From an uncultured Solirubrobacterales bacterium (GTDB taxonomy: Bacteria > Actinomycetota > Thermoleophilia > Solirubrobacterales > 70-9), in NCBI GenBank assembly GCA_963748075.1, contig CAVVHQ010000044.1:14631-78630 (forward strand): a stretch of 64,000 bases of DNA, given 5' to 3'. Below the pieces are notes generated by a model. It was given only the letters and a program-made list of their open reading frames with translations. It searched no databases and was not told the origin of the DNA. Each line of letters opens with the position of its first letter. Positions within the stretch are counted from its first letter, which is position 1. The translations under genes were made by a program, and so were the position numbers. This document shows, one piece after another, positions 3,101 through 54,805 of this stretch.

Positions 3101-3719
3101 GCTGCTCGAGTGGAGCCAGGCGAACGGATGGGCGGAGCCGGACGGGGAACTGATCCGCCGCCATGCCCTCGCCGCCGGCCTCGAGCTCGGCGACGCAGGA
3201 GCGGTCGAGGGCCTGCTCAACCCGGTCCGCGCCTGGCTGGACTCGGCGCTGTTGCGCGACCGGGTCCGCGCCGCAGGTGTCTCGACGCGGGCCGAGGTCC
3301 CGTTACTGCTCGACGTCTCGGGCACCGTCCTGCGCGGCTCGATCGACCTGCTGGTCGAGCGCGACGGTGAGCCGCCGCTGGTAGTCGACTACAAGACCGA
3401 CCGCCTCGACGGCGCCTCCCCGCAGGAGCGCGCCGCCCGCTACGAGACGCAGCGCGACGTCTACGCGCTGGCCGTCGCCGGGGCGCGCGGCGCGGCCGCG
3501 GTCGAGGTCGCCTACGTCTTCCTCGAGCGACCCGAGGAGCCCGATCTCAGCCGACTCGGCCGGGCCGAGATGGAGGCGGGACGGCGACAGCTTGCAGCGA
3601 CGATCGCGCGGATCTCCGGCGGCGAGTTCCCACCTGCCCCGCCCGAGCAGCGCGGCTGGGCGCTCTGCGAGGGCTGCCCGGCCCTCGGCCGCCTCTGCTC
3701 GGGGCCCGAGGGCGTCTGA
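190..3719 (+). pseudogene. UvrD/AddA-like ATP-dependent helicase with a C-terminal Cas4/AddB-type nuclease domain; reading frame broken near 2395-2445
   Basis: ORF 190-2595 has Walker A (AGAGTGKTG), DEFQD and VHSAKGLEFDVV helicase motifs, then turns into Arg/Gly junk after about 2395. ORF 2445-3719, in another frame, continues with helicase motif VI (LFHVAATRARRRLLLSG). It then has a PD-(D/E)XK domain (DLLVE..VVDYKTD) and the cysteine triad CEGCPALGRLC. The third frame reads RTPLLTVGREAEDAAGG over 2399-2443. Confidence 0.7.
2982..3026. repeat. Perfect 45-bp palindrome (17-bp arms, 11-nt loop) lying in-frame inside the addA-like CDS
   Basis: CGCGGTAGAGGTTTGAG (2982-2998) is the exact reverse complement of CTCAAACCTCTACCGCG (3010-3026). 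The palindrome is exactly 15 codons starting on a codon boundary (RGRGLSRIPAQTSTA). It is full of codons rare for this GC content (aga, ttg, agt, ata, caa, tct). Confidence 0.9.
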
Positions 3720-3811
3720 CCGGCGCATCTCGGCGTCCTCGGTCGCTCACGTAAAGAGCACGCTTCGCTCCCTGCGTCCTTGACCTTCTCGGTTCTCGGT
3801 CAGACGCCCTC
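3708..3811. repeat. Family-C palindromic intergenic element, copy 1
   Basis: TIRs are GAGGGCGTCTGACCG (3708-3722) and CGGTCAGACGCCCTC (3797-3811). The interior blocks CCGGCGCATCTCGGCGTCCTCGGTCGC ... GCTCCCTGCGTCCTTGA are shared with the copies at 5402, 36631, 40497 and 61705. Both TIRs contain the stop codons of the convergent flanking genes. Confidence 0.8.
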
Positions 3812-4033
3812 AGGCGGAGCTTGCTCGAGCTTCGCCGCCAGCTCGTCGAGCCGCAGCTCCTGGAGGCCGGCGCTGACCGCGTCCAGCTCCGCCGCGCAGT
3901 AGGTGACCAGCTCGCGACCCTCGCTGCACAGCTCGAGCGTCTCGCGCAGGCCCGCCTGGCCCGAATCGAGCCGGTCGATGATCTCCTCCAGCCGCTCGAC
4001 CGCGGCCTCGTAGGACTCAGGCTGCTCGCTCAT
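3800..4033 (-). CDS. xseB: Exodeoxyribonuclease VII small subunit
   Basis: 77-aa ORF MSEQPESYEAAVERLEEIIDRLDSGQAGLRETLELCSEG..., typical of the XseB helical hairpin. It overlaps xseA upstream by 4 nt. Confidence 0.85.
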   Translation of the reverse strand: MSEQPESYEAAVERLEEIIDRLDSGQAGLRETLELCSEGRELVTYCAAELDAVSAGLQELRLDELAAKLEQAPPEGV

Positions 4034-5382
4034 TCGCGCTCCCCGTCGGGTTCGATCTCCGCGCCGACCCGGCCGTCGGCGAAGCGCAGTCTGACGCGTC
4101 CGGCGGCGACCGCGGCGGCGGCGCTGGTCACCGGCTCGCCGTCGGCGTCCTCGGCCAGCGCGTAGCCACGTTCCAGGGTGCGCTCGGGGTCGTGAGCGCG
4201 CAGCGCGACGGAAGCGCGGCGCAGGGCGTCGCGCCGGGCACGCAGCGCGGCGCCGGAGGCGCGGTCGATCGTGGTCGAGCGCCGGCGGTTCGCGGTGGCC
4301 TCGGAAGCGGCGCCCTGAACGCCCCGGCGCCTAACCCGGTCGAGGACGACCAGCGCGATGCGGCGCTGGAAGGAGAGCTGCTCGCCAACCCGGCGCTCGG
4401 AGGCGGCGCGCATCTCCCGCGTCCTCTGGTTGAGCACAACGCGCTCGCGCCGCAGCGCCCGCGCCGGGCCCCGCGCCAGGGCGACGAGGTGGCGACTGCG
4501 GACGCCGATCGCGCCCTCCCCGGCCCGCCGCAGCGAGCCGGCGCAGCGCTCCAGCCCGCGCCGCGCCTCGACGCAGTCGAGCGGCACGGCCGCCTCGGCG
4601 GCGTGGGTCGGGGTCGAGCAGGCGACGGCGGCGACGTCGTCGATCAAGGTCGAGTCGCGCTCGTGGCCGACCGCGCTGACCACCGGGACGCGCAGCATCG
4701 CCACGGTGCGGCAGAGGGTCTCGTCGCAGAAGGCCCAGAGGTCGGCGAGGCTGCCGCCGCCCCTGGTGACGACGATCGCCTCGACCTCGGGTCGCGCCGC
4801 CAGGTCCTGGATCGCCGCCGCGATCGCCGGCGCCGCGCGACGGTCCTGCACCGGGGCGAACGCCCAGACGACGCTCCCCGCCCAGCCGCGGCGCCGCAGC
4901 CCGGCGAGCAGGTCGCGCCGCGCCGCCCCCGACTCCGCGGTGACCACGCCGATCGCCCTCGGCAGCAGCGACCGCGGCAGCTGCTTTTGCAGCTCGAACA
5001 GGCCCTCGGCGCGAAGCTGCTTGCGCAGCGCCTCCAGCCGGGCCAGCAGGTCGCCCTCGCCGGCGAGGCGGAGATGGGTGACTCGGAATGAGAAGGCCGG
5101 AGAGGACGTCGCGCTGCCGATGAAGTAGTCCGGCCCACCCGCCGCGACGAATTCGGCTCCGTCCCGCAGCGCGCCGTCCGGGAGCTCGAGGGCGGCCAAT
5201 TCGTCGGCCCAGATCGTGCATGGAACCGCGCCCTCGGCATCGCGTAACTCGAAATAGGTCTGCTTCTGGGTATGCCGCAGGCCGGTGACCTCACCGATCA
5301 GCTGGACCCGCGCCCGCTTGCGCAGCTCGTCGCGAAGGGTCTTCGCATAGCGACCAACCGCAAATGGACCGGGTAGTTCCAC
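4030..5382 (-). CDS. xseA: Exodeoxyribonuclease VII large subunit
   Basis: 450 aa with a GTG start. It has an N-terminal OB-fold region (VQLIGEVTGLRHTQKQTYFELRD) and a central catalytic region (VVTRGGGSLADLWAFCDE). Confidence 0.85.
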   Translation of the reverse strand: MELPGPFAVGRYAKTLRDELRKRARVQLIGEVTGLRHTQKQTYFELRDAEGAVPCTIWADELAALELPDGALRDGAEFVAAGGPDYFIGSATSSPAFSFRVTHLRLAGEGDLLARLEALRKQLRAEGLFELQKQLPRSLLPRAIGVVTAESGAARRDLLAGLRRRGWAGSVVWAFAPVQDRRAAPAIAAAIQDLAARPEVEAIVVTRGGGSLADLWAFCDETLCRTVAMLRVPVVSAVGHERDSTLIDDVAAVACSTPTHAAEAAVPLDCVEARRGLERCAGSLRRAGEGAIGVRSRHLVALARGPARALRRERVVLNQRTREMRAASERRVGEQLSFQRRIALVVLDRVRRRGVQGAASEATANRRRSTTIDRASGAALRARRDALRRASVALRAHDPERTLERGYALAEDADGEPVTSAAAAVAAGRVRLRFADGRVGAEIEPDGERE

Positions 5383-5401
5383 AAGCTCAGGCTATCCGTG
5401 T

Positions 5402-5509
5402 CCGATGACCCGCAAGGCCCAAGCAGATCAAGGATGCAGGGAGCGCCGCGTGCTCTGCACGCAAGCGACCGAAGACGCAGATATGCGCCGGGCATCGCGG
5501 GTCATCCGG
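5402..5509. repeat. Family-C palindromic intergenic element, copy 2
   Basis: TIRs are CCGATGACCCGCAAGGCCC (5402-5420) and GGGCATCGCGGGTCATCCGG (5490-5509). The core GCAGGGAGCG-GCGTGCTCTGCACGC-AAGCGACCGAAGACGCAGATATGCGCCGG is almost identical to the copy at 36631. The hxlR stop (5502-5504) lies in the right TIR. Confidence 0.8.
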
Positions 5510-5840
5510 CGCGCTTCCATTCGCGCGCCCAGGACCTGAGCTCGACGATCGCGGGACGGAGCCCGGTCCCGACCACGGTGAGCGAGTATGTGACCCGGAC
5601 CGGCGAGCCCGCTTCGACCTCGCGCTCGACCAGGCCCTCGTCCTCCAGCTCGCGCAGCCGCTGCGAGAGCAGCCTGTCCGACATCCCCGGCACGGCCTTG
5701 GCCAGCTCGCCGAAGCGCAGCGGACCCTCGGTCAGGGCGCAGACGATCGCCCCGGTCCAGCGCTTGCCGATCAACTCGATCGCGGCGTGGAAGTGGGGGC
5801 AGACGCCCGTCGGATGCTCTGTCGTCGACATCGCCTCCAC
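5502..5840 (-). CDS. HxlR-family winged-helix transcriptional regulator
   Basis: 112 aa with CPHFHAAIELIGKRWTGAIVCAL..FGEL..GMSDRLLSQRLRELEDEGLVER. An alternative ATG start lies at 5831. Confidence 0.8.
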   Translation of the reverse strand: MEAMSTTEHPTGVCPHFHAAIELIGKRWTGAIVCALTEGPLRFGELAKAVPGMSDRLLSQRLRELEDEGLVEREVEAGSPVRVTYSLTVVGTGLRPAIVELRSWAREWKRAG

Positions 5841-5853
5841 GGTCGATCCTGAG

Positions 5854-5868
5854 CTTACTAAACGTAAG
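5854..5868. promoter_or_regulatory. Candidate HxlR operator (inverted repeat CTTAC-TAAAC-GTAAG)
   Basis: This AT-rich dyad is the only one in the 65-nt divergent spacer between hxlR (-) and the MarP-like gene (+). Confidence 0.35.
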
Positions 5869-5905
5869 CGATGGGCCCGCCAGCCTGGCCTGCTTCTATT
5901 CGCCC

Positions 5906-7048
5906 GTGACCGTTCTCGACTGGGCGATCGTCGCCTTCACGCTCGCGCTGGCCCTCTGGGGCTACCGGCAGGGGTTGATAGTCGGCGTCCTCACCCTGCT
6001 CGGCTTCGGCGCCGGGGCGCTGGCCGGCGGCCGGGTCGGGCCGCTGCTGCTCAACGAAGGGTCCGAGTCCCCCTACGCGCCGCTGTTCGCGGCGCTCGGC
6101 GCGCTGCTGATCGGAGCGCTGGCGGCGGTGACCTTCGAGAGCCTGGCGCTGGGGCTGCGGGCGCGGCTGATCCGCGGTCGGGCGCTGCGCTTCGTCGACG
6201 GCGCCGCCGGCGCGGCGCTGATCGCAGCCGTCTCGCTCGGCCTGGCCTGGGTGCTGGGCGCCGTCGCCCTGCACGCGCCGGGCACCGCCCAGCTGCGAGT
6301 CGACGTGCAGCGCTCGCTGATCCTGCGCGGGCTCAACGACGCGCTGCCGCCGTCCGGGCCGATCCTCAACGCGCTCGACCGGGTCGACCCGGCGCCGTCG
6401 ATCGCCGGTCCGACGACGCCCGTCGCCCCGCCGAACGCGGCGATTGCCTCCGACCCCGACGTGCAGCGGGCGGGTCGCTCCGTGGTCAGGGTGCTGGGCA
6501 CCGCCTGCGGCCTCGGCGTCGAGGGCTCGGGCTGGGTCGCCGCCCCGGGAACCGTGGTCACCAACGCACACGTCATCGCCGGCGAGAACGACACCACCGT
6601 CACCACCCAGGACGGCGCCTCGCTGGAAGCGACGCCGGTCCACTACGACCCCGTCAACGACCTGGCACTGCTCCGCGTCGACTCCCGGCTCGCCGCCCTT
6701 CCGATCGCCCCCGACCCGCGGCGCGGCGCGAGCGGCGCCGTGCTCGGCTACCCCGAGAACGGCCCTTACGCGGTCGCCCCGGCCCGCATGGGCGAGATCC
6801 GCTCGGCAGTCAGCGAGGACTCCTACGGCGCCGGCCCGATCCGTCGCACGATCGCCTCCTTGCGCGGCACGGTCCGCAGCGGCGACTCCGGCGGCCCCCT
6901 GGTCGATTCCCGGGGCCGCGTCATGGGCACCGTCTTCGCCGCAACCACCTCCGGCCCGCCCGGCGGCTTCGCCGTCCCCAACGAAGTCATCCGCTCAGCC
7001 CTAACCGAAACGACGGCGCCCGTAGACACCGGCCCCTGCACGGGCTAG
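5906..7048 (+). CDS. CvpA-domain membrane-anchored trypsin-like serine protease (MarP-like)
   Basis: 380 aa with four N-terminal TM helices followed by an S1 domain. The catalytic triad context is TNAHV / DLALL / GDSGGP. Confidence 0.8.
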   Translation: MTVLDWAIVAFTLALALWGYRQGLIVGVLTLLGFGAGALAGGRVGPLLLNEGSESPYAPLFAALGALLIGALAAVTFESLALGLRARLIRGRALRFVDGAAGAALIAAVSLGLAWVLGAVALHAPGTAQLRVDVQRSLILRGLNDALPPSGPILNALDRVDPAPSIAGPTTPVAPPNAAIASDPDVQRAGRSVVRVLGTACGLGVEGSGWVAAPGTVVTNAHVIAGENDTTVTTQDGASLEATPVHYDPVNDLALLRVDSRLAALPIAPDPRRGASGAVLGYPENGPYAVAPARMGEIRSAVSEDSYGAGPIRRTIASLRGTVRSGDSGGPLVDSRGRVMGTVFAATTSGPPGGFAVPNEVIRSALTETTAPVDTGPCTG

Positions 7049-7081
7049 CGAGGTGGAGGACTCCAAGCAACTCTTGACGGA

Positions 7082-7228
7082 GAGGGTAGGGCACCGCTCC
7101 CCGCGGCTTGTACTTTTTCCGCGGCGCGCTCCGCGGACAGCCGCAAACTGTCTTCGGAAAAAGTTGAGCGGGGAGCGGTGCCCCGCCCTCTTCCCACACC
7201 AAAAGTTGAGCGGGGAGTAGTACCCGAC
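7082..7228 (+). repeat. Family-A long-hairpin repeat (about 109-nt hairpin plus a partial tandem duplicate)
   Basis: GGGCACCGCTCCCCGC (7089-7104) pairs perfectly with GCGGGGAGCGGTGCCC (7168-7183). An inner stem is ACTTTTTCCG / CGGAAAAAGT. AAAGTTGAGCGGGGAG is repeated at 7159 and 7201. The element is homologous, in reverse complement, to 45781-45871 plus 46055-46084. Confidence 0.8.
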
Positions 7229-9851: not shown

Positions 9852-10241
9852 ATGCAGGAACACGGCGAGACGACAGCCGAGTTCGCGATTCCGGCCGAGC
9901 TGACGACGCCGGGCTGGCTGGACGACGCCCGGGCCGGGCTCGACCCCGGCAGCCGTAGCCTCGTCTGGCGCGACGACGACGGCAAGGTCCGGGTCCTCGA
10001 GGTGAAGCGCGGCTGGACGCGGATCGGCCGCAGCGTCACCGCCGACATGCGCCTCGACGACCCCAGCGTCTCCCGCCGCCACGCGCTGATCGTCTCCGAA
10101 CCGGAAGAGTCGCTGCGTGTCCTCGACGATCGCAGCCTGAACGGCGTCTTCGTCAACGGCGAGCTGATCGAGTGGGGCAAGCTGGAGGACGGAGACGAGC
10201 TGACCGTCGGCCGCTACCACCTCTTCGTTCTCGCGGCCTGA
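9852..10241 (+). CDS. FHA-domain protein; the coding region very probably extends upstream to about 9666 to include a zinc ribbon
   Basis: The FHA signature is RIGRSVTADMRLDDPSVSRRHALI...NGVFVNG. The same frame is open from 9555 and encodes TYFCLDCGSQLSLRENDCLPQCPRCEGSSF (9738-9827). No ATG, GTG or TTG occurs in that frame before 9852. Confidence 0.7.
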   Translation: MQEHGETTAEFAIPAELTTPGWLDDARAGLDPGSRSLVWRDDDGKVRVLEVKRGWTRIGRSVTADMRLDDPSVSRRHALIVSEPEESLRVLDDRSLNGVFVNGELIEWGKLEDGDELTVGRYHLFVLAA

Positions 10242-10339
10242 GGCGCTCCGGTGCGCCTCATGCACCCACAGCGCAGATAGGGCGCACCGGAGCTGGAGCT
10301 GCGCGGGTTCCGGCCACCGGCCCCCGTAGCATTCTCTCC

Positions 10340-10723
10340 GTGGACTCCGCCCACGATCCCTCCGTCGCCGCCGAGCAGGCCCGCGCCCGCCTGCACGAAG
10401 AGATCGAGCGCGTCCGGGTCGGAGTCGAGGACATGCTCGCCGAGCAGGAGAACGGCGACGCCGGTCTGCAACGGGAGCTGGACGCGATCCGCAAGGAGAC
10501 CCGCCGCTACGTCAAGCGCCGTGTCCGCAAGAGTGAGAAGAGAACCGACAAGCGGCTCCGCAGGCTGGACGGTCGCACCGACGAGCTGGAGCGCCGCCTC
10601 GAGGCCTTCGAGCAGGACCGCAAGTACGCCGAGTGGCGCATCCACACCAACATGGAGCAGATGCTTGACGGCCTGCTCGGCGAGGTTCGCGCAATCGCCG
10701 ATCTGCTCACCAGGACCCGATAG
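10340..10723 (+). CDS. Coiled-coil hypothetical protein
   Basis: This is the C-terminal part of ORF 10172-10723 and is Glu/Arg-rich heptad-like sequence (LHEEIERVRVGVEDMLAEQ...). I placed the start at the first GTG beyond the FHA gene; the start is uncertain. Confidence 0.45.
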   Translation: MDSAHDPSVAAEQARARLHEEIERVRVGVEDMLAEQENGDAGLQRELDAIRKETRRYVKRRVRKSEKRTDKRLRRLDGRTDELERRLEAFEQDRKYAEWRIHTNMEQMLDGLLGEVRAIADLLTRTR

Positions 10724-10728
10724 CGCTG

Positions 10729-10832
10729 GGAAGGGGCGGGGCGCCCCTCCTTCGGAACCCGCGCCCGCACTGGGCGAGGGACCGGGGCTTGGCTGCTCAC
10801 AAGTTCCGCTGGAGGGGCGCCCCGCCCCTTCC
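10729..10832. terminator. 104-nt near-perfect long hairpin between convergent genes (probable bidirectional terminator or palindromic element)
   Basis: GGAAGGGGCGGGGCGCCCCTCC (10729-10750) is the exact reverse complement of GGAGGGGCGCCCCGCCCCTTCC (10811-10832). The stem extends through CGGAAC / GTTCCG. Each arm also self-folds (GGGGCG-GGG-CGCCCC). Confidence 0.6.
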
Positions 10833-10836
10833 ACGG

Positions 10837-13800
10837 CTACTCGGTCGAGATGCTCGGGTCCGCCTGGACCTTGTGGGGGACGATCATCAGGAAGCTGTCG
10901 CCGGGGGCGGCGGCGAGCGAGCGAATCCGCGCCGCCTCCTCGGCTTGATCCGTTGCGTCGAGCTCGGTCGCGTAGTGGGAGAGCAGCTCCTCCACGTCGA
11001 GCAGCCCCTCCGGATCGAGGTCCTTCAGCTCCACTTTGGCGCCCTCGCCGAGCCGCTGCTCGATCGCCTCCCGGTCGATGCCGAAGGCGTTGTGGCGGAC
11101 GTAGACGCGGCCCCCGGTCATCCCGGCGCAGGCCCAGGGACCGATGTCCCCGAGCACCACCGCGCGACCCGAGGTCATGTACTCGAAGGCGAACCCCTTG
11201 GCGTTGGCGCGGTCGACCAGGCAGCCGCGGCTGTCGTCGATCGGCGTCTCGGGCTCGCCGCCCAACACCACGTCGGCGCCGGAGAGGCGGATGCAGAATC
11301 GCGAGTCGGCCGAGCCCTGGACGAAGAGGCGGCCACGCTGGGCGCCGTAGGCGAACGACTTGCCGACCGAGCCGTTCAGCCGGCGGCCCCTGGCCCCCTT
11401 GCCCTTCAGCACGGCGACCGTGCCCCCCAGCATCGTCTTGCCGACGCCGTCCTGGGCGCCGCCCTCGACCCGGATCGAGACGCCGTAGGAGTTGAAGGCG
11501 CCGAGGCCCTGACCGGCGACCGAGCCGCCGTTGAACTCGAGGTCGGCGAGCACGTCCTCGCCCGGCTCCGGGCCGTCGTCGAAGATGCGGGCGCGGGCGA
11601 TCGCCCCGGCCAGCTCGGTGCCGAGCACCCGGTCGCCCGCGTCGGTGGCGCGCGGGAACTCGCTGCGCACCGCATGCCCCGAGCAGACCTCGCCGGCCAG
11701 GGCGCCGATCTGGGCCGAGGCGGCCTTGGCCTCCATGCGGATCGGGCGGGCGACGACGAGGCCCGCTTCGGCGCGCTGCTCGGCGATCTCCCCGGTGACC
11801 GGCAGATCGAGCGGCTCGAGGTCGAGGAACTCCTCCAGCGGGGTGATCAACGGCGCCAGGTCGATCCGCTCGTGGTGGGAGATCTGCTCGAGCAGGTCGT
11901 AGCGCCCGACCAGGTCCTGGGCGCGCTCGTAGCCGAGCGAGGCGACGACCTGCTTGACCTCCTCGCCCATCGCCGCGAAGAAGCGGGCGCAGCTCTCCGC
12001 CGCCCGGTCGACCTCCTGCGGGGTGAACTTCTTCAGGCCGTGCTCCTGGGCCTGCTCGGTCGTCTCGATCTGGGTGGCGATGCCGACGTGGCAGGTGTCG
12101 AGCTGGCAGCCGCGGCAGATCGTGCAGCCGAGGCTGACCATCGCCAGGGTGCCGAAGCCGATCCGGTTGGCGCCCAGGCAGTGCAGCTTGACGATGTCGT
12201 GGCCGGTGCGGTAGCCGCCGTCGGCCCAGATCTCGACCCGGTTGCGCAGGCCCGCCTCCATCAGCGCCCGGTGCACGGCCCGGGTGCCGATGTCCGACGG
12301 CAGGCCAACGTGGCGCAGGGCGTGCTGGCGGGCGGCGCCGGTGCCGCCCTCGAAACCCGAGAGGGTGATGATGTCGGCGCCCGCCTTGGCGATGCCGAGG
12401 CCGATCGTGCCGATGTTCGGCACCACCGGCACCTTGACCGAGACCCGCACGTCGGGGTTGACCGTCTTCAGCTCGTCGATCAGCTCGGCCAGGTCCTCGA
12501 TCGAGTAGAGGTCGTGGTTGTTGGAGGGCGAGATCAGGTCGGTGCCGGGCGAGGCGTTACGCGCGGCGGCGACCTTCTCGGAGACCTTCTTGCCGGGCAG
12601 GTGGCCGCCCTCGCCGGGCTTCGCCCCCTGGCCGATCTTGATCTCGGCGACGTAGGAGGAGTTGATCATCTCGGCCGATACGCCGAAGCGACCGGAGGCG
12701 ACCTGCTGGCCGCGCCACTTGCGGTAGTGCCCGTACATGTCGCGGATCTCACCGCCCTCGCCGTTGACACAGAGGACGTTGATCGCCTTCGCCGCCTCCG
12801 CGTAGGCCCGGAAGGCCGGCTCGGACTGCGAGCCGAAGCTCATCGAGGAGATCACCACCGGGTAGTCGTGGTGGCCGACGCCGGCGTCCACCGCCGCCGG
12901 GTCGAGCGGCTCGCGGTCGCCCTTCAGGTCCATGATGTGGCGCATCGAGATCGGGCTCTGGCGCTCCAGGTCGCGCACCTTCTCGGAGTACTCCTCGTAG
13001 GAGCCGGAGCCATTGGCGGTGGCGATCGCCGCCTTGTAGACCTTCGGGTAGAAGCGGAACGTCTTCGCCGGTTTCGCGCCCTCGTCGCCGCTCAGCGCCT
13101 GCGCCCGCTCGTTCGTTTCCTCGTCGAGCGCGTCGAAGCCGACCCCGCCCCGCTCGGAGGCGGCGAAGGCCTCGGTCTGGAAGATCTCGGCCAGCTCGGG
13201 CCGCACGCCGATCGAGGAGAACTGGCGCGCGTAGCCGCGCACCTCGTGGATTCCGATCGTCGAGATCACTTTCTCGATCCCCTTGCCGAGCGCCGCGCAG
13301 AGGTTGGCGATGTCGGCCTGGTAGTCCTCGACGCAGATCACCTCGACCATCGTGTAGGGGCAGACCCCGTTGGCGCCGAGGCCGAGCGCCAGCATCGTGT
13401 CGTGGACGTTGCGGATCGCGGCGGAGCGCAGCACGATGCCGCAGCGGCGGCGCAGGTTCTCCTCGCCCGGCTCGACCCGGAACTGCTTCAGCGCCTGGTC
13501 GACCGCCGAGGTCGCCAGGTGCGGGTCGAGGAAGCGGCGCTCGGCGTCGTAGACGGTGCGGTCGGTCAGCACCAGCAGCTCGGCGCCGTCGCGCACCTTC
13601 TTCACCGCCTCCTGCTTGATCCGTTCGATCGCGCCCCTGTTCGTCTCCGACTCGAGCAGCGAGACGTCGACCGCGCCGGCCCGGCCCCTGAACTCCTCCC
13701 AGAGGTCCTCGAGCAGGTAGGTGCGCTGCTCGCGGGCGATGCGGCGATAGCTCTTGTCGGAGAGCGGCGCCATCCCGTGGTGGCCGCCGAGGATCACCGG

Positions 13801-15504
13801 AAAGGCGGTCTCGACGGTGCCGGTGTCCTCGCCGGCGGCGTCGAGCGAGGGGCGGCGCCCGAACACGGCCCGGGTCGAGAAGTGCTCGACCTCGCGCTCG
13901 CGGTCGATCGCCGGGTTGGTGACCACGGCGACCGTCTCCTTGAAGTAGTCGGCGAGGTTCTGGCGCTCCGGCGAGAGCGCCGCCAGCGGCCCGTCGTAGC
14001 CGAGCGAGCCGATCGGCTCGGCGCCGTTGGAGGCCATCTGCTGGACCAGTTTGACGTCGTCGCGCTGCCAGCCGAAGCCGGCGAGGACGCGGTCGGCGAC
14101 CTTGACCGGCTCTTCCGGGCCGGCGTCGGAGTAGCCGGGCACGTCGCCGCCCTCCAGCGGCCCGCCGGCCTCCAGCCCGCGGTCGTAGGGGGCCGCCTCG
14201 GCGACGCCGTTGCGGGCCAGCCAGCGGTCGCGGACGATGCCGAGCATCTCGTCGTGCGGGCGCAGGGTCGAGCGCCTTGCCCCGCGGTCGATCTCCACCA
14301 GCGCCTTCTCGCCGGGGGCGAGCGGCTTCGGCTCGGCGACCAGCTCGGCGACCGCGACGACGCCGGGCTCGGAGCTGAAGACGTAGTCCTCGCTCGTCTC
14401 GAGCTGCCAGAGGGGGCGCAGCCCGAGCGCGTCGGCGGAGAAGACGCACTCGTCGCTGTGGCGGGCGATCAGCGCCACCGGTCCCTGCGCGAACGGGCCC
14501 ATCGCCTGCCGCAGGTACATGTAGAAGCGGTGCAGCTCCTCGGGCAGGGCGCGGATCTCGTTGACGATCGGCGGCACGACCATCTCCATCGCCTCGGCGA
14601 GGCTGAGCCCGCCGCGGTTGACCAGGGTGTTGATCGTCCGGTTGAGGTCCTGCGAATCCGACGACCCCGGCCGGATCGGCACGCCGAGCATCCGCGCCTC
14701 CTGGCGCAGCTGCTCGATCGTGTTGATCTCGCCGTTGTGGCCGAGCACCGCGAAGGGCTGCACCCGCTTGAAGGAGGGCCAGGTGTTGGTCGAGTAGCGG
14801 TTGTGGCCGAAGCAGCCGATCGTCTCGAAACGATCGTCGCGCAGGTCGGGGTAGTACTCGCCGAGCACCTGCGGCGCCCCCATCACCTTGTAGACGCAGG
14901 TCGTCGCCGAGAGCGACGGGATGTGGACGTCGAGCCTCTCCTCCAACTCGATCAGGAGGTCGAACAGGACGCGGTCGCGGCGCGAGGCGTCGGCGACGAG
15001 GCCGGCGACCTGCCAGAAGTGCGGCTCCTCCTCGCGCGCGGTCGGGCCGAGCGCCGGCGAGTCGACGACGCCGATCCGCTCGGCGAGGATGCGGAAGCCG
15101 CCCCGACCGAGCAGCTCGCGGGCGTCGTGCTGGACGCGCTCGCGATCCTGGGAGCGCTCGATGAAGAAATGAGCGACGGCGAAGGCGTCGTCGAGGGTCA
15201 GCGAGGGGTCGTGTCCGCCGGCGCGGACCTCCTCGGCCCAGATCTTGCGCGGGATGTCGACCAGCACGCCGCAGCCGTCCCCCTCGCCGTCGACGTTGCC
15301 GGCGCGGTGGAGCATCTTCTGCAGCGCCGCGATCGCCCGCTCGAGCGGTTCGTGGCTCGGCGTCGCGTCCTTGCGGACCGACGCGTAGATCGCGCAGGCG
15401 TCCTTGTCCTCGACGCTCGGCGGTGGGACAAGCGGCCGGTAGGGAAGCTCAGGCGAGTAGCGCTTGGCCTTCCCCCGAGGACGTGACTGGTGCAGCTCAG
15501 ACAA
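10837..15504 (-). CDS. gltB: Glutamate synthase large subunit
   Basis: 1555 aa with a TTG start and GGAGG 5 nt upstream. It has an amidotransferase N-terminus (CGVLVDIP), an FMN domain (LSGFEGGTGAARQHALRHVGLP) and a C-terminal GXGXG-type repeat domain. No gltD gene is adjacent. Confidence 0.9.
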   Translation of the reverse strand: MSELHQSRPRGKAKRYSPELPYRPLVPPPSVEDKDACAIYASVRKDATPSHEPLERAIAALQKMLHRAGNVDGEGDGCGVLVDIPRKIWAEEVRAGGHDPSLTLDDAFAVAHFFIERSQDRERVQHDARELLGRGGFRILAERIGVVDSPALGPTAREEEPHFWQVAGLVADASRRDRVLFDLLIELEERLDVHIPSLSATTCVYKVMGAPQVLGEYYPDLRDDRFETIGCFGHNRYSTNTWPSFKRVQPFAVLGHNGEINTIEQLRQEARMLGVPIRPGSSDSQDLNRTINTLVNRGGLSLAEAMEMVVPPIVNEIRALPEELHRFYMYLRQAMGPFAQGPVALIARHSDECVFSADALGLRPLWQLETSEDYVFSSEPGVVAVAELVAEPKPLAPGEKALVEIDRGARRSTLRPHDEMLGIVRDRWLARNGVAEAAPYDRGLEAGGPLEGGDVPGYSDAGPEEPVKVADRVLAGFGWQRDDVKLVQQMASNGAEPIGSLGYDGPLAALSPERQNLADYFKETVAVVTNPAIDREREVEHFSTRAVFGRRPSLDAAGEDTGTVETAFPVILGGHHGMAPLSDKSYRRIAREQRTYLLEDLWEEFRGRAGAVDVSLLESETNRGAIERIKQEAVKKVRDGAELLVLTDRTVYDAERRFLDPHLATSAVDQALKQFRVEPGEENLRRRCGIVLRSAAIRNVHDTMLALGLGANGVCPYTMVEVICVEDYQADIANLCAALGKGIEKVISTIGIHEVRGYARQFSSIGVRPELAEIFQTEAFAASERGGVGFDALDEETNERAQALSGDEGAKPAKTFRFYPKVYKAAIATANGSGSYEEYSEKVRDLERQSPISMRHIMDLKGDREPLDPAAVDAGVGHHDYPVVISSMSFGSQSEPAFRAYAEAAKAINVLCVNGEGGEIRDMYGHYRKWRGQQVASGRFGVSAEMINSSYVAEIKIGQGAKPGEGGHLPGKKVSEKVAAARNASPGTDLISPSNNHDLYSIEDLAELIDELKTVNPDVRVSVKVPVVPNIGTIGLGIAKAGADIITLSGFEGGTGAARQHALRHVGLPSDIGTRAVHRALMEAGLRNRVEIWADGGYRTGHDIVKLHCLGANRIGFGTLAMVSLGCTICRGCQLDTCHVGIATQIETTEQAQEHGLKKFTPQEVDRAAESCARFFAAMGEEVKQVVASLGYERAQDLVGRYDLLEQISHHERIDLAPLITPLEEFLDLEPLDLPVTGEIAEQRAEAGLVVARPIRMEAKAASAQIGALAGEVCSGHAVRSEFPRATDAGDRVLGTELAGAIARARIFDDGPEPGEDVLADLEFNGGSVAGQGLGAFNSYGVSIRVEGGAQDGVGKTMLGGTVAVLKGKGARGRRLNGSVGKSFAYGAQRGRLFVQGSADSRFCIRLSGADVVLGGEPETPIDDSRGCLVDRANAKGFAFEYMTSGRAVVLGDIGPWACAGMTGGRVYVRHNAFGIDREAIEQRLGEGAKVELKDLDPEGLLDVEELLSHYATELDATDQAEEAARIRSLAAAPGDSFLMIVPHKVQADPSISTE

Positions 15505-23435: not shown

Positions 23436-23596
23436 AGGCCACCCCCGGCTTTGCCTGGAAGGTCGCCTCCGATCAAAGCAGCGACGCGGCGGGCTGAGGC
23501 TCCGATTCAGCCGACTGGGACTTTTACCCCCGTTATTGGGGGTCAAAGTCCCAGTCGAGCGCACGGCGATCGGGTTGGAGCCAACCCGGTACGCAC
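23436..23596 (-). mobile_element. Family-B MITE, second copy (one TIR missing or degenerate)
   Basis: By eye there are about 6 mismatches over about 160 nt against the reverse complement of 45872-46038. The right TIR GGAGCCAACCCGGTACGCAC (23577-23596) is retained, and its last base is the first base of the acyl-CoA dehydrogenase stop codon. Confidence 0.8.
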
Positions 23597-45777: not shown

Positions 45778-45780
45778 GGG

Positions 45781-46084
45781 GCGAGGGTCGGGTGCCCTTC
45801 ACGCTCAACTTTTTCCGAAGACAGCCAGTGGCCGTCCGCGAGCCGCCCTTCGGAAAAAGTACAAGCCGCTTGGTGCGTACCGGGTTGGCTCCAACCCGAT
45901 CACCGTGCGCTCGATTGGGACTTTGACCCCCAATAACGGGGGTAAAAGTCCCAATCGGCTGAATCGGAGCCTCAGCCCGCCGCGTCGCTGCTTTGATCGG
46001 AGGCGACCTCCCAGGCGGAGCCGGGGGTGGCCTGGAGCCAACCCGGTACGCAGTAGCCGCTTAGAGGGGCACCCGGCCCCTCGC
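45781..46084 (-). repeat. Family-A long-hairpin repeat, copy 2, split by the MITE insertion
   Basis: 45781-45871 plus 46055-46084 are homologous to the reverse complement of 7082-7190 (CGCTCAACTTTTTCCGAAGACAG ... CTTCGGAAAAAGTACAAGCCGC). The outer stem CGGGTGCCC (45789) / GGGCACCCG (46067) is separated by the insertion. Confidence 0.75.
45872..46054 (+). mobile_element. Family-B MITE (183 bp) with 21-bp TIRs and an 8-bp target-site duplication
   Basis: TIRs are GGTGCGTACCGGGTTGGCTCC (45872-45892) and GGAGCCAACCCGGTACGCAGT (46034-46054), complementary at 19 of 21 positions. Direct repeats AGCCGCTT lie at 45864-45871 and 46055-46062. An internal hairpin is GGGACTTTGACCCCC-AATAAC-GGGGGTAAAAGTCCC. 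No ORF is present. Confidence 0.85.
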
Positions 46085-49405: not shown

Positions 49406-49478
49406 AGCCCGCCCCCGGACTTGAACCGGGACAACCTTCCTTACAAGGGAAGCGCTCTGCCAATTGAGCTAGGCGGGC
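49406..49478 (-). tRNA. tRNA-Thr (anticodon TGT)
   Basis: The 73-nt cloverleaf was read by hand. Acceptor GCCCGCC/GGCGGGC, D arm GCTC-AATTGGCA-GAGC, anticodon arm CTTCC-CTTGTAA-GGAAG. Variable loop GTTGT, T arm CCCGG-TTCAAGT-CCGGG, discriminator T. CCA is not encoded. Confidence 0.9.
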
Positions 49479-52549: not shown

Positions 52550-52663
52550 AGATCCTTCTCCTTTGGAACGAAGGGTCGTGGCGCCGCTTACCTCCCCCGA
52601 GGCGCCCTTCTTTTTGATCGGGATACCTCAGACTCAAGCTGAGGTTCACCCTTTCGGCCGCAA

Positions 52664-52691
52664 GTCTTACCTCCGGGCGGAGTTCTGTCAA
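52664..52691 (-). promoter_or_regulatory. Candidate sigma-70-type promoter for sigH
   Basis: On the minus strand TTGACA (52691-52686), 16-17 nt, then TAAGACT. This leaves a structured leader of about 110 nt that ends in AAGGAGAAGG before the GTG start. Confidence 0.35.
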
Positions 52692-52739
52692 CCCCGAACT
52701 GAGGTTCGTGCAACCGCCGTTGCAGTTGCTAAGCGTGCC

Positions 52740-53390
52740 CTATCGGCGGCGGACGGCCTCGAAGAGCAGCGCGGTCGCCGCCGCGGAGACGTTCAGCGAC
52801 TCGACCTCGCCCCGTCGCGGCAGCGCGACCAGGCCGTCGCAGGCCGAGGCGACGCGGGGCCGGATGCCTTTCCCCTCGCCGCCGAGGACGAGGACGATCG
52901 GGCCGCTCAAGTCGACCTCCCACGGCGCCTGCATCGCCGCGACGTCGGCGCCCCAGATCCAGAAGCCGGCCGCCTTGGCCTCGCCGAGCCAGTCGGCGAG
53001 GTTGCGCACCCGGGCCACCTCGAGATGCTCGACGGCCCCTGCCGACGCCTTGCAGGCAACCGCGGTCACCGTGGCCGAGCGACGCTCGGGGATGACGACG
53101 GCGGCGGCGCCGGCGAACTCGGCGGAGCGGCAGATCGCGCCGAGGTTGCGCGGATCCTGGACCTGGTCGAGCGCGACGATCAGCGCGTTCTCCCCGTCCA
53201 GCAGCGCATCGGGATCCGCATAGGGATATGGATCGGCCTCGGCCACCACCCCCTGGTGGTCCGGCGACCCGCAGAGCCGCTCCAGCTCTTCGGCCGGCGT
53301 ATCGGGGACGCGCCAGATCCGCTGGACGCGGCGCTTCCCCCGCTCCGCCTCCTCGACCGGGCGGCGTCCGTAGATCTTCTGACTCGCCAT
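52740..53390 (-). CDS. rlmB: TrmH/SpoU-family 23S rRNA 2'-O-methyltransferase (RlmB-like)
   Basis: 216 aa with SpoU motifs DQVQDPRNLGAICRSA, LVLGGEGKG and ESLNVSAA. Confidence 0.8.
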   Translation of the reverse strand: MASQKIYGRRPVEEAERGKRRVQRIWRVPDTPAEELERLCGSPDHQGVVAEADPYPYADPDALLDGENALIVALDQVQDPRNLGAICRSAEFAGAAAVVIPERRSATVTAVACKASAGAVEHLEVARVRNLADWLGEAKAAGFWIWGADVAAMQAPWEVDLSGPIVLVLGGEGKGIRPRVASACDGLVALPRRGEVESLNVSAAATALLFEAVRRR

Positions 53391-54805
53391 CAGCCCCTGG
53401 GAACCAGCTTGGCTCCGTCGGGCGAGTCCCTGACCTCCCAGCCGAGATCGGCAAGCCGCTCGCGGATCTCGTCGGCGCGGGCGAAGTCCTTGGCGGCGCG
53501 AGCCTCCTGTCGCTCGGCCAGGAGCGCCGCCGCCTCGGCCCCGGCCCCCTGCTCTGCCGCCGCAAGCGACTCGAGCCCGAGCAGCTCCAACATCTCAAGC
53601 AGCGCTTCGGGCGCTCCCGGTACGTCTTCCCTATTCGCTTCGGCCACCAGCTCAAAAGCCTCGGCCATCGCCCGCGGCGTGTTGAAGTCGTCGGCAAGAG
53701 CCTCGCGAAACGCCTCGATCCGAGAGCCGGGGGGTCCTCCGATGGGAACTTGTGAGCCGGCGAGGCCGGAACCCGCGCCCGACGACTCGACGCGGGTTCC
53801 CAGCGGGGGACCCCCCGGCTCTCCCACCGGGTGCTCCCGAAAGAAGTTCCGCAACCGCTCGACCCGCGCGACCGCCTGCTCCATCCGCTCGGCGCCAAAG
53901 GCGAGCGGATGGCGGTAATGGCCGGAGACCAGGAAGTCGACAACCGCCTCGCGCCCGTAGCGGTCGAGCGCCTCCGAGAGCTGGAAGATGTTCCCCTCCG
54001 ACTTCGACATCTTCGCCGCGTCGGTCTCGATCATCCCGTTGTGCATCCAAGCCCGCGCGAACGGCCGCCCGGCGGCCTCGGACTGGGCGATCTCGTTCTC
54101 GTGATGGGGAAAGACCAGGTCCGACCCCCCGCCATGGATCGCAAACGACGGTCCCAGCTCCTCCTCCGCCATCACCGAGCACTCGATGTGCCAGGCCGGA
54201 CGACCGGGACCCCAGGGCGAGTCCCAGGAAGTGTCCTCGCCCTCCTTGTGCGCTTTCCAGAGCGCGAAGTCGAGCGGATCCTCCTTCAGCGACTCCGACC
54301 CGGCCTCCTCGCCCTGGTCCATGTCCTCCGGCTTGCGGTTTGAGAGCTCCCCGTAGCCGTCGAAGCTCCGTACCCGGAAGTAGACGTCTCCGCCGGACTC
54401 ATAGGCGTGCCCGGACTCGATCAGCTCCGAGGTCAACCCGACGATCCCGTCGATCGTCTCGGTTGCCAGCGGCTCCGCGTCGGGCCGCCCCAAGCCAAGC
54501 CGATCGGTGTCCTCGAAATAGGCCCGGGTCATCCGCTCCGCGAACCCCGCCGAGGGCTCCCCCGCCTCGCGCGCCGCCTCGTAGATCTTGTCGTTGATGT
54601 CGGTGACGTTGATCACCAGCTTCACCCTGTACCCCTCCGTCCTGAGGAAGCGGGCAAGCAGGGAGAAGACGACAAACGGCCTGGCGTTGCCGATGTGGAT
54701 CCGGCTGTAAACGGTCGGCCCGCAGGCATATATCCCCACCTCCTCGTCAGAGGAGAGGGTGCGCAGCTCCCCGCTCAGCGTGTCCCGTATCCGGACCTCC
54801 CGCAT
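53390..54805 (-). CDS. cysS: Cysteine--tRNA ligase
   Basis: 471 aa with HIGN (HIGH) and KMSKS motifs and DDFNTP in the anticodon-binding domain. It contains an insertion of about 33 codons encoded by the palindrome at 53724-53821. Confidence 0.9.
   Translation of the reverse strand: MREVRIRDTLSGELRTLSSDEEVGIYACGPTVYSRIHIGNARPFVVFSLLARFLRTEGYRVKLVINVTDINDKIYEAAREAGEPSAGFAERMTRAYFEDTDRLGLGRPDAEPLATETIDGIVGLTSELIESGHAYESGGDVYFRVRSFDGYGELSNRKPEDMDQGEEAGSESLKEDPLDFALWKAHKEGEDTSWDSPWGPGRPAWHIECSVMAEEELGPSFAIHGGGSDLVFPHHENEIAQSEAAGRPFARAWMHNGMIETDAAKMSKSEGNIFQLSEALDRYGREAVVDFLVSGHYRHPLAFGAERMEQAVARVERLRNFFREHPVGEPGGPPLGTRVESSGAGSGLAGSQVPIGGPPGSRIEAFREALADDFNTPRAMAEAFELVAEANREDVPGAPEALLEMLELLGLESLAAAEQGAGAEAAALLAERQEARAAKDFARADEIRERLADLGWEVRDSPDGAKLVPRG
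53724..53821. repeat. 98-bp nested palindromic element translated in-frame within cysS
   Basis: Outer perfect 14-bp inverted repeat GAGCCGGGGGGTCC / GGACCCCCCGGCTC. Second tier CCGATGGGAAC / GTTCCCAGCGG (10 of 11). Inner hairpin GGAACCCGCG-N13-CGCGGGTTCC. Confidence 0.85.

Follow-up and report, generated by a model that had tools for sequence, protein, structure and literature searches.

How does an essential aminoacyl-tRNA synthetase gene come to carry a palindrome of ∼100 nt in frame? The question is raised by a 64,000-nt stretch of DNA, here called the window, from an uncultured Solirubrobacterales bacterium (70-9; assembly GCA_963748075.1, contig CAVVHQ010000044.1, positions 14,631-78,630), in which the cysteinyl-tRNA synthetase gene (cysS; product CysS or CysRS) contains a nested inverted repeat. 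The original prediction, made from the sequence of the window, took the palindrome for a mobile or repeat element that had landed in a surface loop and is now expressed as protein, in the manner of the Rickettsia palindromic elements (RPEs). We found that the palindrome is a copy of an abundant, hitherto undescribed hairpin repeat family of soil Solirubrobacterales and that the usual site of this family is directly after stop codons. Taken as a whole, the evidence makes it likely that one copy of this dispersed repeat is translated as a loop of CysS and has been kept as a hairpin by constraint on the nucleic acid. In what follows, L-numbers are fetched DNA loci, P-numbers are CysS protein orthologues, and R1 is a covariance model built from the repeat copies listed. 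The host gene and the parts of the element, which we call type A, are as follows.

53390..54805, minus strand: cysS, cysteinyl-tRNA synthetase, 471 aa, assigned as an open reading frame (ORF) and by homology; host of the insert.
53722..53823, minus strand: complete type A hairpin repeat in cysS, 102 nt = 34 codons, defined by inverted repeat, fold z-scores, and family model R1.
53801..53823, minus strand: 5' outer arm on the coding strand (GAGAGCCGGGGGGTCCCCCGCTG), matching the family arm profile (GA-rich, CGGG, CCCCTCC).
53745..53800, minus strand: 56-nt core GGAACCCGCG...GCTCACAAGTTCC, an exact pattern match common to the copy at 10754-10807.
53796-53800, 53750-53756, and 53745-53749, minus strand: the core parts GGAAC, CTCACAA bulge, and GTTCC, respectively.
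53722..53744, minus strand: 3' outer arm on the coding strand (CATCGGAGGACCCCCCGGCTCTC), found by inverted-repeat search.

The full inverted repeat has 28-nt arms (53722-53749 and 53796-53823) that are 93% complementary and separated by 46 nt. Folded as DNA, the element reached −47.3 kcal/mol compared to −28.4 ± 2.6 for shuffled sequences (z = −7.2; 0 of 200 shuffles as good), and the RNA of the coding strand reached −82.3 compared to −59.3 ± 4.1 kcal/mol (z = −5.7). The exact 14-nt outer repeat described previously was present (GAGCCGGGGGGTCC on the plus strand at 53724-53737 and on the minus strand at 53808-53821); the 14-mer alone is unremarkable in G+C-rich DNA, where 4.1 chance matches with ≤2 mismatches were expected and 2 were found. 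The inner hairpin GGAACCCGCG-N13-CGCGGGTTCC also exists as described (53768-53777/53791-53800), but it is peculiar to the cysS copy, whose apex contains a second GTTCC that creates it; what the family as a whole conserves is the outer GGAAC...GTTCC helix around the entire apex. A 16-nt inverted repeat flanking the element (53606-53621/53826-53841) was judged to be a chance occurrence in G+C-rich sequence.

The reading frame runs through the whole element, as had been claimed: the ORF is CysS by homology, with the arms and the GGAAC/GTTCC helix surrounding an apex that is read as ...GEPGGPPLGTRVESSGAGSGLAGSQVPIGGPPGSR..., and the segment ...EPGGPPLGTRVESSGAGSGLAGSQVPIGGPPGS... appears as originally written. 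The assignment rests on 120 homologues at 78-90% identity that are annotated as cysteine--tRNA ligase (Pfam tRNA-synt_1e, DALR_2, and CysS_C) and on matches to the CysRS structures 3tqo (Coxiella) and 1li5 (E. coli). The insert lies between the helix ...VERLRNFF and the DDFNTP helix. Both structures align with the query up to ...ERLRNFFREHP and resume at SRIEAF...DDFNTP, leaving query residues ∼327-359 (34 residues) opposite 7-8 residues, a net insert of ∼26 aa; the canonical segment is thus shorter, as predicted, although by somewhat fewer than the ∼30 residues proposed. Among 134 distant CysS representatives, the linker stretch ranges from 19 to 90 residues (median 42; query 54) with unrelated sequences, so that the linker is permissive, and the insert appears to occupy a length-variable, insertion-tolerant region of CysRS. 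The original prediction held that equally long segments in distant orthologues would refute an inserted element. Taken to the letter, this applies, as 43 of the 134 have ≥45 residues in this stretch, but they are unrelated in sequence and therefore show only that the site tolerates insertions. Alignment to the solved structures and the variable linker length also point to the proposed surface loop.

Further copies of the element were expected if it is a repeat, and they were found, the first of them in the window itself:

10729..10832, plus strand: second type A copy, intergenic, core 10754-10807, found by inverted-repeat search and alignment, 94.8 bits with R1.

This copy fills the spacer between the stops of an ORF at 10172..10723 (plus strand) and a gltB-like ORF at 10837..15504 (minus strand), lying 5 nt and 4 nt from the two convergent stops, and together with its orthologues in other genomes it makes up a group of 22 copies. 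Read in the cysS coding orientation, both copies have GGAACCCGCG...(31-33 nt)...GCTCACAAGTTCC; their outer arms differ, each being paired. At the locus orthologous to 10729-10832, 3' of gltB, many genomes have two back-to-back type A copies (+,−) and the window has one (double copies at L015:7133-7357, L109:292-526, L041:1773-2012, L086, L100, L047, and others). R1 recognized exactly two copies in the window (94.8 bits, and 81.3 bits with E = 1.7e-15 for the cysS copy), with everything else below 29 bits, and 750 kb of flanks yielded another ∼20 diverged copies; these counts therefore correspond to ∼1 copy per 30-40 kb, or ∼100 or more per genome. A scan with a gapped core pattern, using one genome per species, yielded >130 copies in ≥120 loci, nearly all from Solirubrobacterales metagenome-assembled genomes (MAGs) and often several per genome. 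In Rfam 15, the sole match of the window at or above a family's gathering threshold was a tRNA gene (49406-49478, minus strand), and at E ≤ 10 just spurious microRNA-like matches fell on the element.

Among the 134 matches listed, 116 have an outer stem of ≥15 bp, with a mean stem of 24.9 bp that is 92% Watson-Crick; the listed copies have a median length of 106 nt (102-112 nt), and the lengths of the well-formed ones show no bias to multiples of three (35/42/39 by multiple of three). According to crude gene calls based on GC3 (the G+C content of third codon positions), the listed copies comprise 40 between convergent, 39 between tandem, and 15 between divergent genes, with another 10 placed within a gene. 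They lie a median of 12 nt past the upstream stop codon, and one in four is no more than 2 nt away from it. In tandem contexts, 27 of them are sense to the upstream gene and 12 antisense. All 11 back-to-back doublets among the matches listed read (+,−), mostly between convergent genes, so that each member is sense to the gene ending beside it; the doublets are partly orthologous, and the 11 correspond to ∼5-6 independent loci. Copies within ORFs of the loci listed comprise the cysS series and one ABC ATPase gene in L112, the other inside calls being 5' untranslated region positions. The L112 copy (6375-6479, minus strand) is type A and sits in frame in the linker between two ABC_tran domains, in a frame that differs from that of cysS (…GTRVESPARALASPAHKFRQGDP…).

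The copies share a common anatomy that is preserved mainly by pairing. In type A, the outer 5' arm is purine-rich, followed by CGGG, two variable bases, and CCCCTCC; next inward come a small internal loop with G-N-C opposite G-N-C and then the GGAAC/GTTCC helix. On the 3' side inward of GTTCC, a 7-nt CTCACAA bulge separates this helix from a 3-bp CCG/YGG helix, and apart from that short helix, which creates the bulge, the 46-nt apex has no fold that is consistent across copies. The arms are only ∼53% identical between copies, yet 95.1% of outer-stem cells are paired, compared to 42-57% for slid partners. Compensated cells numbered 781 versus 213 in shuffles, a value reached by 0 of 500 shuffles, and G.U pairs were nearly absent (0-2 of 116 at most columns). 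Orthologous intergenic copies likewise have arms that differ between genomes yet pair, with 1899 compensated versus 697 one-sided changes over comparison pairs that are mutually dependent. In alignment A2, read in the sense of the core, the non-Watson-Crick cells of the outer stem were mostly C.A/A.C (∼51) and rarely G.U (∼12); they cluster in the CCCCTCC/GGAGGGG segment, and the junction column 26/96 has 28 G.U pairs. This skew may stem from mutational bias or from strand-specific selection.

The cysS orthologues showed what has become of the insert over time. All ∼200 orthologues examined were open through it (84 cysS DNAs that passed a motif filter, 6 checked by hand, and 120 protein orthologues). 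Among the 120 close orthologues, ∼74 carry type A and ∼40 a shorter form, type B (...PGEVPSEQQRGGSAGTSPGS...), some of them doubled; P0112 reads the type A apex from the opposite strand, and four are ∼25 residues shorter. In L123, the arms are identical and the type A core is inverted with the frame intact. The short forms L121 and L122 have only the outermost stem left (GAGAGCTGGGGGG-A-CCCCCCGACTCTC), and within this same outermost stem L124, a type B, has a 27-bp stem and a 12-nt loop. A wider series of 80 further metagenome cysS loci (72-84% identity) nearly all have a 26-29-bp stem with the loop AACAGCGGGGAG; the remainder include L201, with an inverted loop, a few larger loops containing CTCACAA, and three short remnants. 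Doubled hairpins also occur, and remnant forms include L121, L122, and L131. The most divergent cysS genes of the clade (L196, L203, L204, L178, L197, L165, L176, L180, and L128) have a short segment without a palindrome, and the segment is missing from 3tqo and 1li5, which bears out the expectation that it is lineage-specific. The short forms do not share a nearest parent: P0074 shows 95.6% identity to type B sequences, and a type A sequence is closest to P0096 and P0119. They are therefore independent deletions rather than ancestral states; for L121, L122, L131, and L104, deletion remnants are the better interpretation of the short hairpins. The cysS type A cores are all of one sub-type with common arms, consistent with a single origin. 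The insert is old, conserved among orthologues, and still constrained as a hairpin, and its site holds several alternative apical modules. Counts of apex flips across orthologous intergenic loci were discarded as unusable because doublets put one element in the flank of the other; only L123 and L201 were accepted as inversions.

These cysS sequences were gathered through the protein and hence are unbiased as to the hairpin, which allows the source of the constraint to be judged. In 40 type B hairpins, 92.7% of cells were paired, versus 72.8% in shuffles and 40-60% for slid partners; 22 of the 26 pairs had changes on both sides, and 196 cells were compensated versus 54 expected (0 of 500 shuffles reach this value). 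Identity between copies is 93% in the loop and 57% in the arms, and in 41 of 49 copies position 7, counted from the loop, is left unpaired, whichever bases occupy it. Although GC3 of cysS is 0.87, the loop codons C|AA CAG CGG GGA G| of type B keep the A-ending CAA and GGA frozen, and type A keeps the A/T-ending codons TCA, CAA, and GTT. The tolerated peptides differ widely (RVESSGAGSGLAGSQ, CEPARPGPEPRASAR in L123, and SEQQRGGS). Compensated arms, frozen loop codons, and divergent peptides together indicate that it is the nucleic acid, rather than the protein, that is constrained; on these comparisons, a presumably translated segment of an essential gene evolves under a hairpin constraint, with selection acting on the nucleic acid. 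In 73-84% of copies, five of the six reading frames contain no stop, which explains how an ORF can accommodate a copy with a length divisible by three.

The foot ...G-N-C-GGARC[apex]GYTCC-G-N-C... is common to types A and B, which represent a single architecture with different apices. Other apices occur on like stems: a minimal type A core (L039), a larger module (L086), a GAAGGCCGTCGCGCAGCTGG...CCCTTGAGCCTTC module (L038, L071, and L072), and, on type-A-like stems, a TTTTTCGC...GCGAAAAA module (L016 and L090). Beyond cysS, the only type B site found was the end of trpB, where a 27-28-bp stem with the loop AACAGCG[G/T]GGAG has the stop inside its arm; this hairpin lies over the last codons and TGA stop of trpB, ahead of trpA, at L034:∼5851-5919, L040:∼4796-4864, and L038 (minus strand). 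The SpoU-sigma70 spacer two genes 3' of cysS provided one filled site, a diverged type A copy at L042:2131-2242; the same spacer has no hairpin in the window (∼52550-52740) or in L121-L124, L104 has a remnant, and L095 has an unrelated insert of ∼190 nt. The filled site compared to its hairpin-free orthologues shows that the whole hairpin, arms included, is the unit of gain and loss. Insertion of cores into pre-existing host hairpins was rejected as a general rule, since the arm consensus is tied to core orientation and the empty orthologous site is hairpin-free; apex insertion into a type B-like hairpin within cysS is possible. A bolder extension, to which we assign a rather low probability, can be described as chassis plus cargo: a stem with a fixed foot (G-N-C, GGARC) and one obligatory mismatch would be read by a factor, and apical modules would be swapped, turned around, or cut out specifically at the apices; these modules include the type A core, the type B loop, and at least three more. 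If true, this would be a new kind of structure-targeted mobile module or, alternatively, a new factor-dependent system for marking transcript ends that also works inside an essential ORF.

The explanation that we favor for the cysS palindrome, a family hairpin that is translated within CysS and held by nucleic-acid constraint, can be put as a sequence of steps. The copies are units of ∼105 nt with a ∼25-bp variable but paired stem, an invariant GGAAC/GTTCC helix, a CTCACAA bulge, and an exchangeable apical module. Their usual place is the transcript 3' end, right after the stop and co-directional with the gene, where the intergenic copies most likely act as a factor-recognized terminator or a hairpin that protects the 3' end, like TRIT or REP elements. 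One copy presumably entered the CysRS linker between the catalytic and stem-contact part and the anticodon-binding helices, and the gene stayed open, the insert length being a multiple of three and five of six frames stop-free. The element would now be translated as a Gly/Pro/Ser-rich loop extending ∼26 residues beyond the ancestral linker, which the CysS protein would merely tolerate, while the arms co-evolve by compensation and the apex is frozen even at synonymous sites. Depending on the lineage, the apex has been inverted, swapped between A and B, duplicated, or deleted, with the frame always kept.

Several results weigh against parts of this explanation. With regard to mobility, no target-site duplications of ≥3 bp exceeded the shuffled-partner control, with a weak 2-bp excess (58 versus 35); no transposase and no parent insertion sequence lay between or beside the copies in the loci inspected; the genes between inverted pairs 1-1.6 kb apart were only housekeeping ones (HD-domain protein, NadC, and flavin monooxygenase); and no copies were found on the viral contigs and plasmids searched. 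The term mobile in the original prediction is therefore favored by copy number and one filled/empty site but not by a transposase or target-site duplication, and past mobility is something that we infer. A REP/RAYT signature was considered and rejected, GTAG being enriched 3.5-fold in the 5' flank in a diffuse manner and mostly as TAG stop codons. As for a terminator role, just one of 114 copies had a T-tract within 12 nt after the stem when read in one orientation, and none of the 114 when read in the other, so the intergenic copies are not canonical intrinsic terminators. The context statistics come from crude gene calls, the invariance of GGAACCCG and CTCACAAGTTCC in alignment A2 is a product of the search pattern, and the predicted CysS structure (mean pLDDT 46, with only close homologues supplied) is too poor for use in placing the insert at the protein surface. 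The star-like CysS tree (identity 0.847 within A, 0.853 within B, and 0.842 between them) does not give the number or order of the switches among A, B, and short forms. With regard to function at the RNA level, the cysS mRNA strand showed no preference for G.U (35 versus 43 A.C), which fits DNA-level or mechanistic symmetry better than a function in RNA alone and sits uneasily with the orientation bias relative to transcription. A tension thus runs through the data: strict Watson-Crick pairing without wobble argues for symmetry or copying at the level of DNA, whereas a conserved mismatch, a conserved loop, and an orientation biased relative to transcription speak for selection acting on a specific folded single strand.

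A first alternative is one that we regard as less than an even prospect: the cysS hairpin may be a selected cis-acting element of the cysS transcript, active in RNase III-type processing, pausing or attenuation, or protein binding, that tunes CysRS expression. This possibility overlaps the favored explanation, to which it would add a role of the cysS copy in its host; the hairpin would then be kept for that role rather than be a tolerated passenger. It draws on the conserved synonymous sites of the loop, the specific mismatch, and the compensated 26-29-bp stems across ∼50 orthologues, as well as on the same type B hairpin over the trpB stop ahead of trpA and the bias of intergenic copies to the sense orientation. 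RNase III needs ∼22 bp of double-stranded RNA, and the narrow stem lengths (type A mean 24.9 bp; type B 26-29 bp) are at least that long. In contrast, otherwise ordinary cysS genes have the apex inverted (L123 and L201) or replaced between A and B or deleted (L121, L122, L131, P0074, and P0105), so no single version is essential, and the mRNA strand has no excess of G.U.

A second alternative is passive palindromy, in which a single-stranded DNA hairpin forms during replication and one arm templates the other (quasi-palindrome template switching), with neither selection nor function; we consider this improbable. The strict Watson-Crick pairing would follow naturally (G.U in 0-2 of 116 copies at most stem columns, and about as frequent as A.C in cysS), as would the 1899 to 697 ratio of compensated to one-sided changes in the orthologous intergenic pairs, and unstable palindromes typically show inversions and symmetric deletions of the apex. 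However, template switching would erase mismatches, yet type B keeps its unpaired position 7 (in 41 of 49 copies) and type A its G-N-C internal loop, and it leaves unexplained both the 93% loop conservation at saturated synonymous divergence and the placement at stop codons with its orientation bias. Far weaker still is an ordinary, lineage-specific expansion of a low-complexity linker under protein-level selection with incidental DNA symmetry: bacterial CysRS linkers do vary (median 42 residues, range 19-90) and the peptide is rich in Gly, Pro, and Ser, but the same sequence is intergenic at 10729-10832 and >100 other loci, wholly different peptides are tolerated (CEPARPGPEPRASAR in L123; types A and B), arm peptides diverge while base pairing and rare codons are kept, and family membership and covariation thus refute it. 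An assembly or chimera artefact of the window is refuted, and its residual probability negligible, as the same insert occupies the same site in independent JGI, ENA, and NCBI assemblies, including long-read MAG chromosomes.

The family can be compared with several known systems. In-frame palindromic elements have been described for Rickettsia, Coxiella, enterobacteria, pneumococcus, and Anabaena, and a 2024 review contains no actinobacterial in-frame case, in line with the suggestion that none had been described for high-GC Gram-positives. RPEs, of which 44 insertions were reported in R. conorii (Ogata et al. 2000, via PMC10969869), are like the present repeats in being a palindromic family of ∼100-150 bp (here 102-112 nt) with many copies per genome (here >130 copies listed), with in-frame copies that leave unrelated housekeeping genes intact and add a peptide segment, and with intergenic copies as well. 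They differ in host, here an actinobacterial order of ∼70% G+C, and in that only 2 loci among ∼100 are within ORFs, compared to the 44 in R. conorii; the cysS copy differs further in its compensated hairpin evolution, its conservation of synonymous sites, and the swapping and inversion of its apex. The copies listed all come from Solirubrobacterales or related MAGs, and the elements of AT-rich Rickettsia, which we know by description, are presumably unrelated to judge from G+C content and consensus. The RPE-like reading is nonetheless supported, since a palindromic repeat lies in frame in a housekeeping gene and has other copies elsewhere, its translation being what one would infer from the open frame.

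TRIT elements, reported from Mycobacterium only, are 147 palindromic, sequence-conserved copies at stop codons (around −8 of the stop codon), for which their discoverers proposed an additional factor (Gardner et al. 2011, PMC3152330). No in-frame internal copies of TRIT were reported there (PMC3152330), whereas the present family has the cysS and ABC ATPase copies. Both are actinobacterial, abundant, palindromic, conserved in sequence and structure, and tightly placed at stop codons; compared by description, the present family differs in its ∼105-nt length, long variable stem, and modular apex. A terminator-like gene-end repeat family of another phylum has a similar placement and a different sequence, and the copies here are without a T-tract. 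REP/BIME elements and REPINs are extragenic palindromes 3' of genes, with hundreds of copies that often form inverted doublets and lack target-site duplications; REPs are 20-40 nt long, have roles in mRNA 3'-end stability, and possess a conserved GTAG foot that is recognized by RAYT. The present family shares the position just after genes, the inverted doublets, and the lack of target-site duplications, but its unit is ∼105 nt, its GTAG position is not fixed, and no RAYT occurs among the genes between inverted pairs. Bacterial MITEs (miniature transposable elements with inverted repeats; Correia/NEMIS, ERIC, QMITE1/2, and Nezha; PMC10969869, PMC5896051) are small, non-coding, multi-copy, and occasionally fused in frame to ORFs. 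They too have terminal inverted repeats (here ∼25-bp arms, 95% paired) around a variable interior and positions conserved between strains. In contrast to MITEs, neither a target-site duplication nor, in the loci inspected, a parent insertion sequence was detected here, and the arms vary between copies yet pair within each, whereas terminal repeats are the conserved part of MITEs. The cysS copy is RPE-like in behavior and the family as a whole TRIT/REP-like, while probably belonging to none of these groups; what is new is the host group, the size together with the modular apex, a series of orthologues of such depth, and the hairpin-constrained, presumably translated segment.

The window contains other palindromic repeats. 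A second family with the same layout is present at 3704-3815 and 5400-5510 in opposite orientation, with ∼87-nt cores that are ∼80% identical (…CGCTCCCTGCGTCCTTGA…), each copy having its own perfect outer arms of 19-21 bp. The two members of a third family, at 7081-7191 and ∼45790-45880, are also in opposite orientation and share a ∼85% identical core, GGCTTGTACTTTTTCCG…CTTCGGAAAAAGTTGAGCG, that resembles the TTTTTCGC…GCGAAAAA apex on the type-A-like stems of L016 and L090; the outer stem of the 7081 copy is 24 bp long, and after this copy AAAAGTTGAGCGGGGAG occurs as a direct repeat (7161 and 7203). A pair of 46-nt hairpins at 23505-23565 and 45905-45965 (58 of 60 nt identical, opposite orientation) has the form CGAyTGGGACTTTkACCCCC-N6-GGGGGTmAAAGTCCCArTCG with the common flanks ATTCAGCCGA…CGAGCGCAC. 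Positions 45780-46070 form a repeat nest of ∼290 nt that combines a family D copy with a family E hairpin, the hairpin being enclosed by a perfect 20-nt inverted repeat, TGCGTACCGGGTTGGCTCCA, at 45874-45893/46033-46052. An isolated strong hairpin at 2982-3026, CGCGGTAGAGGTTTGAGTCG-CATAC-CGGCTCAAACCTCTACCGCG, closes a 5-nt loop with a 20-bp stem that is 95% paired.

The hairpin repeat described here adds an abundant structured family, absent from Rfam, to the genomes of widespread and largely uncultured soil actinobacteria, and its recognition would aid the annotation of gene ends in these genomes and prevent repeats from being miscalled as coding. In cysS, an essential aminoacyl-tRNA synthetase gene with ∼100 nt ruled by pairing and a conserved loop constitutes a natural overlap of two constraints. 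The ∼200 orthologues show apex inversion, swapping, duplication, and deletion without a break in the frame, a richer picture than that of the classical RPEs, and the origin of protein segments from palindromic repeats thereby becomes testable by comparison. Four features hint at a protein that recognizes the hairpin, echoing the factor proposed for TRIT: a loop that is conserved, a mismatch that is obligatory, stems confined to a narrow range of lengths, and placement at stop codons without a T-tract.

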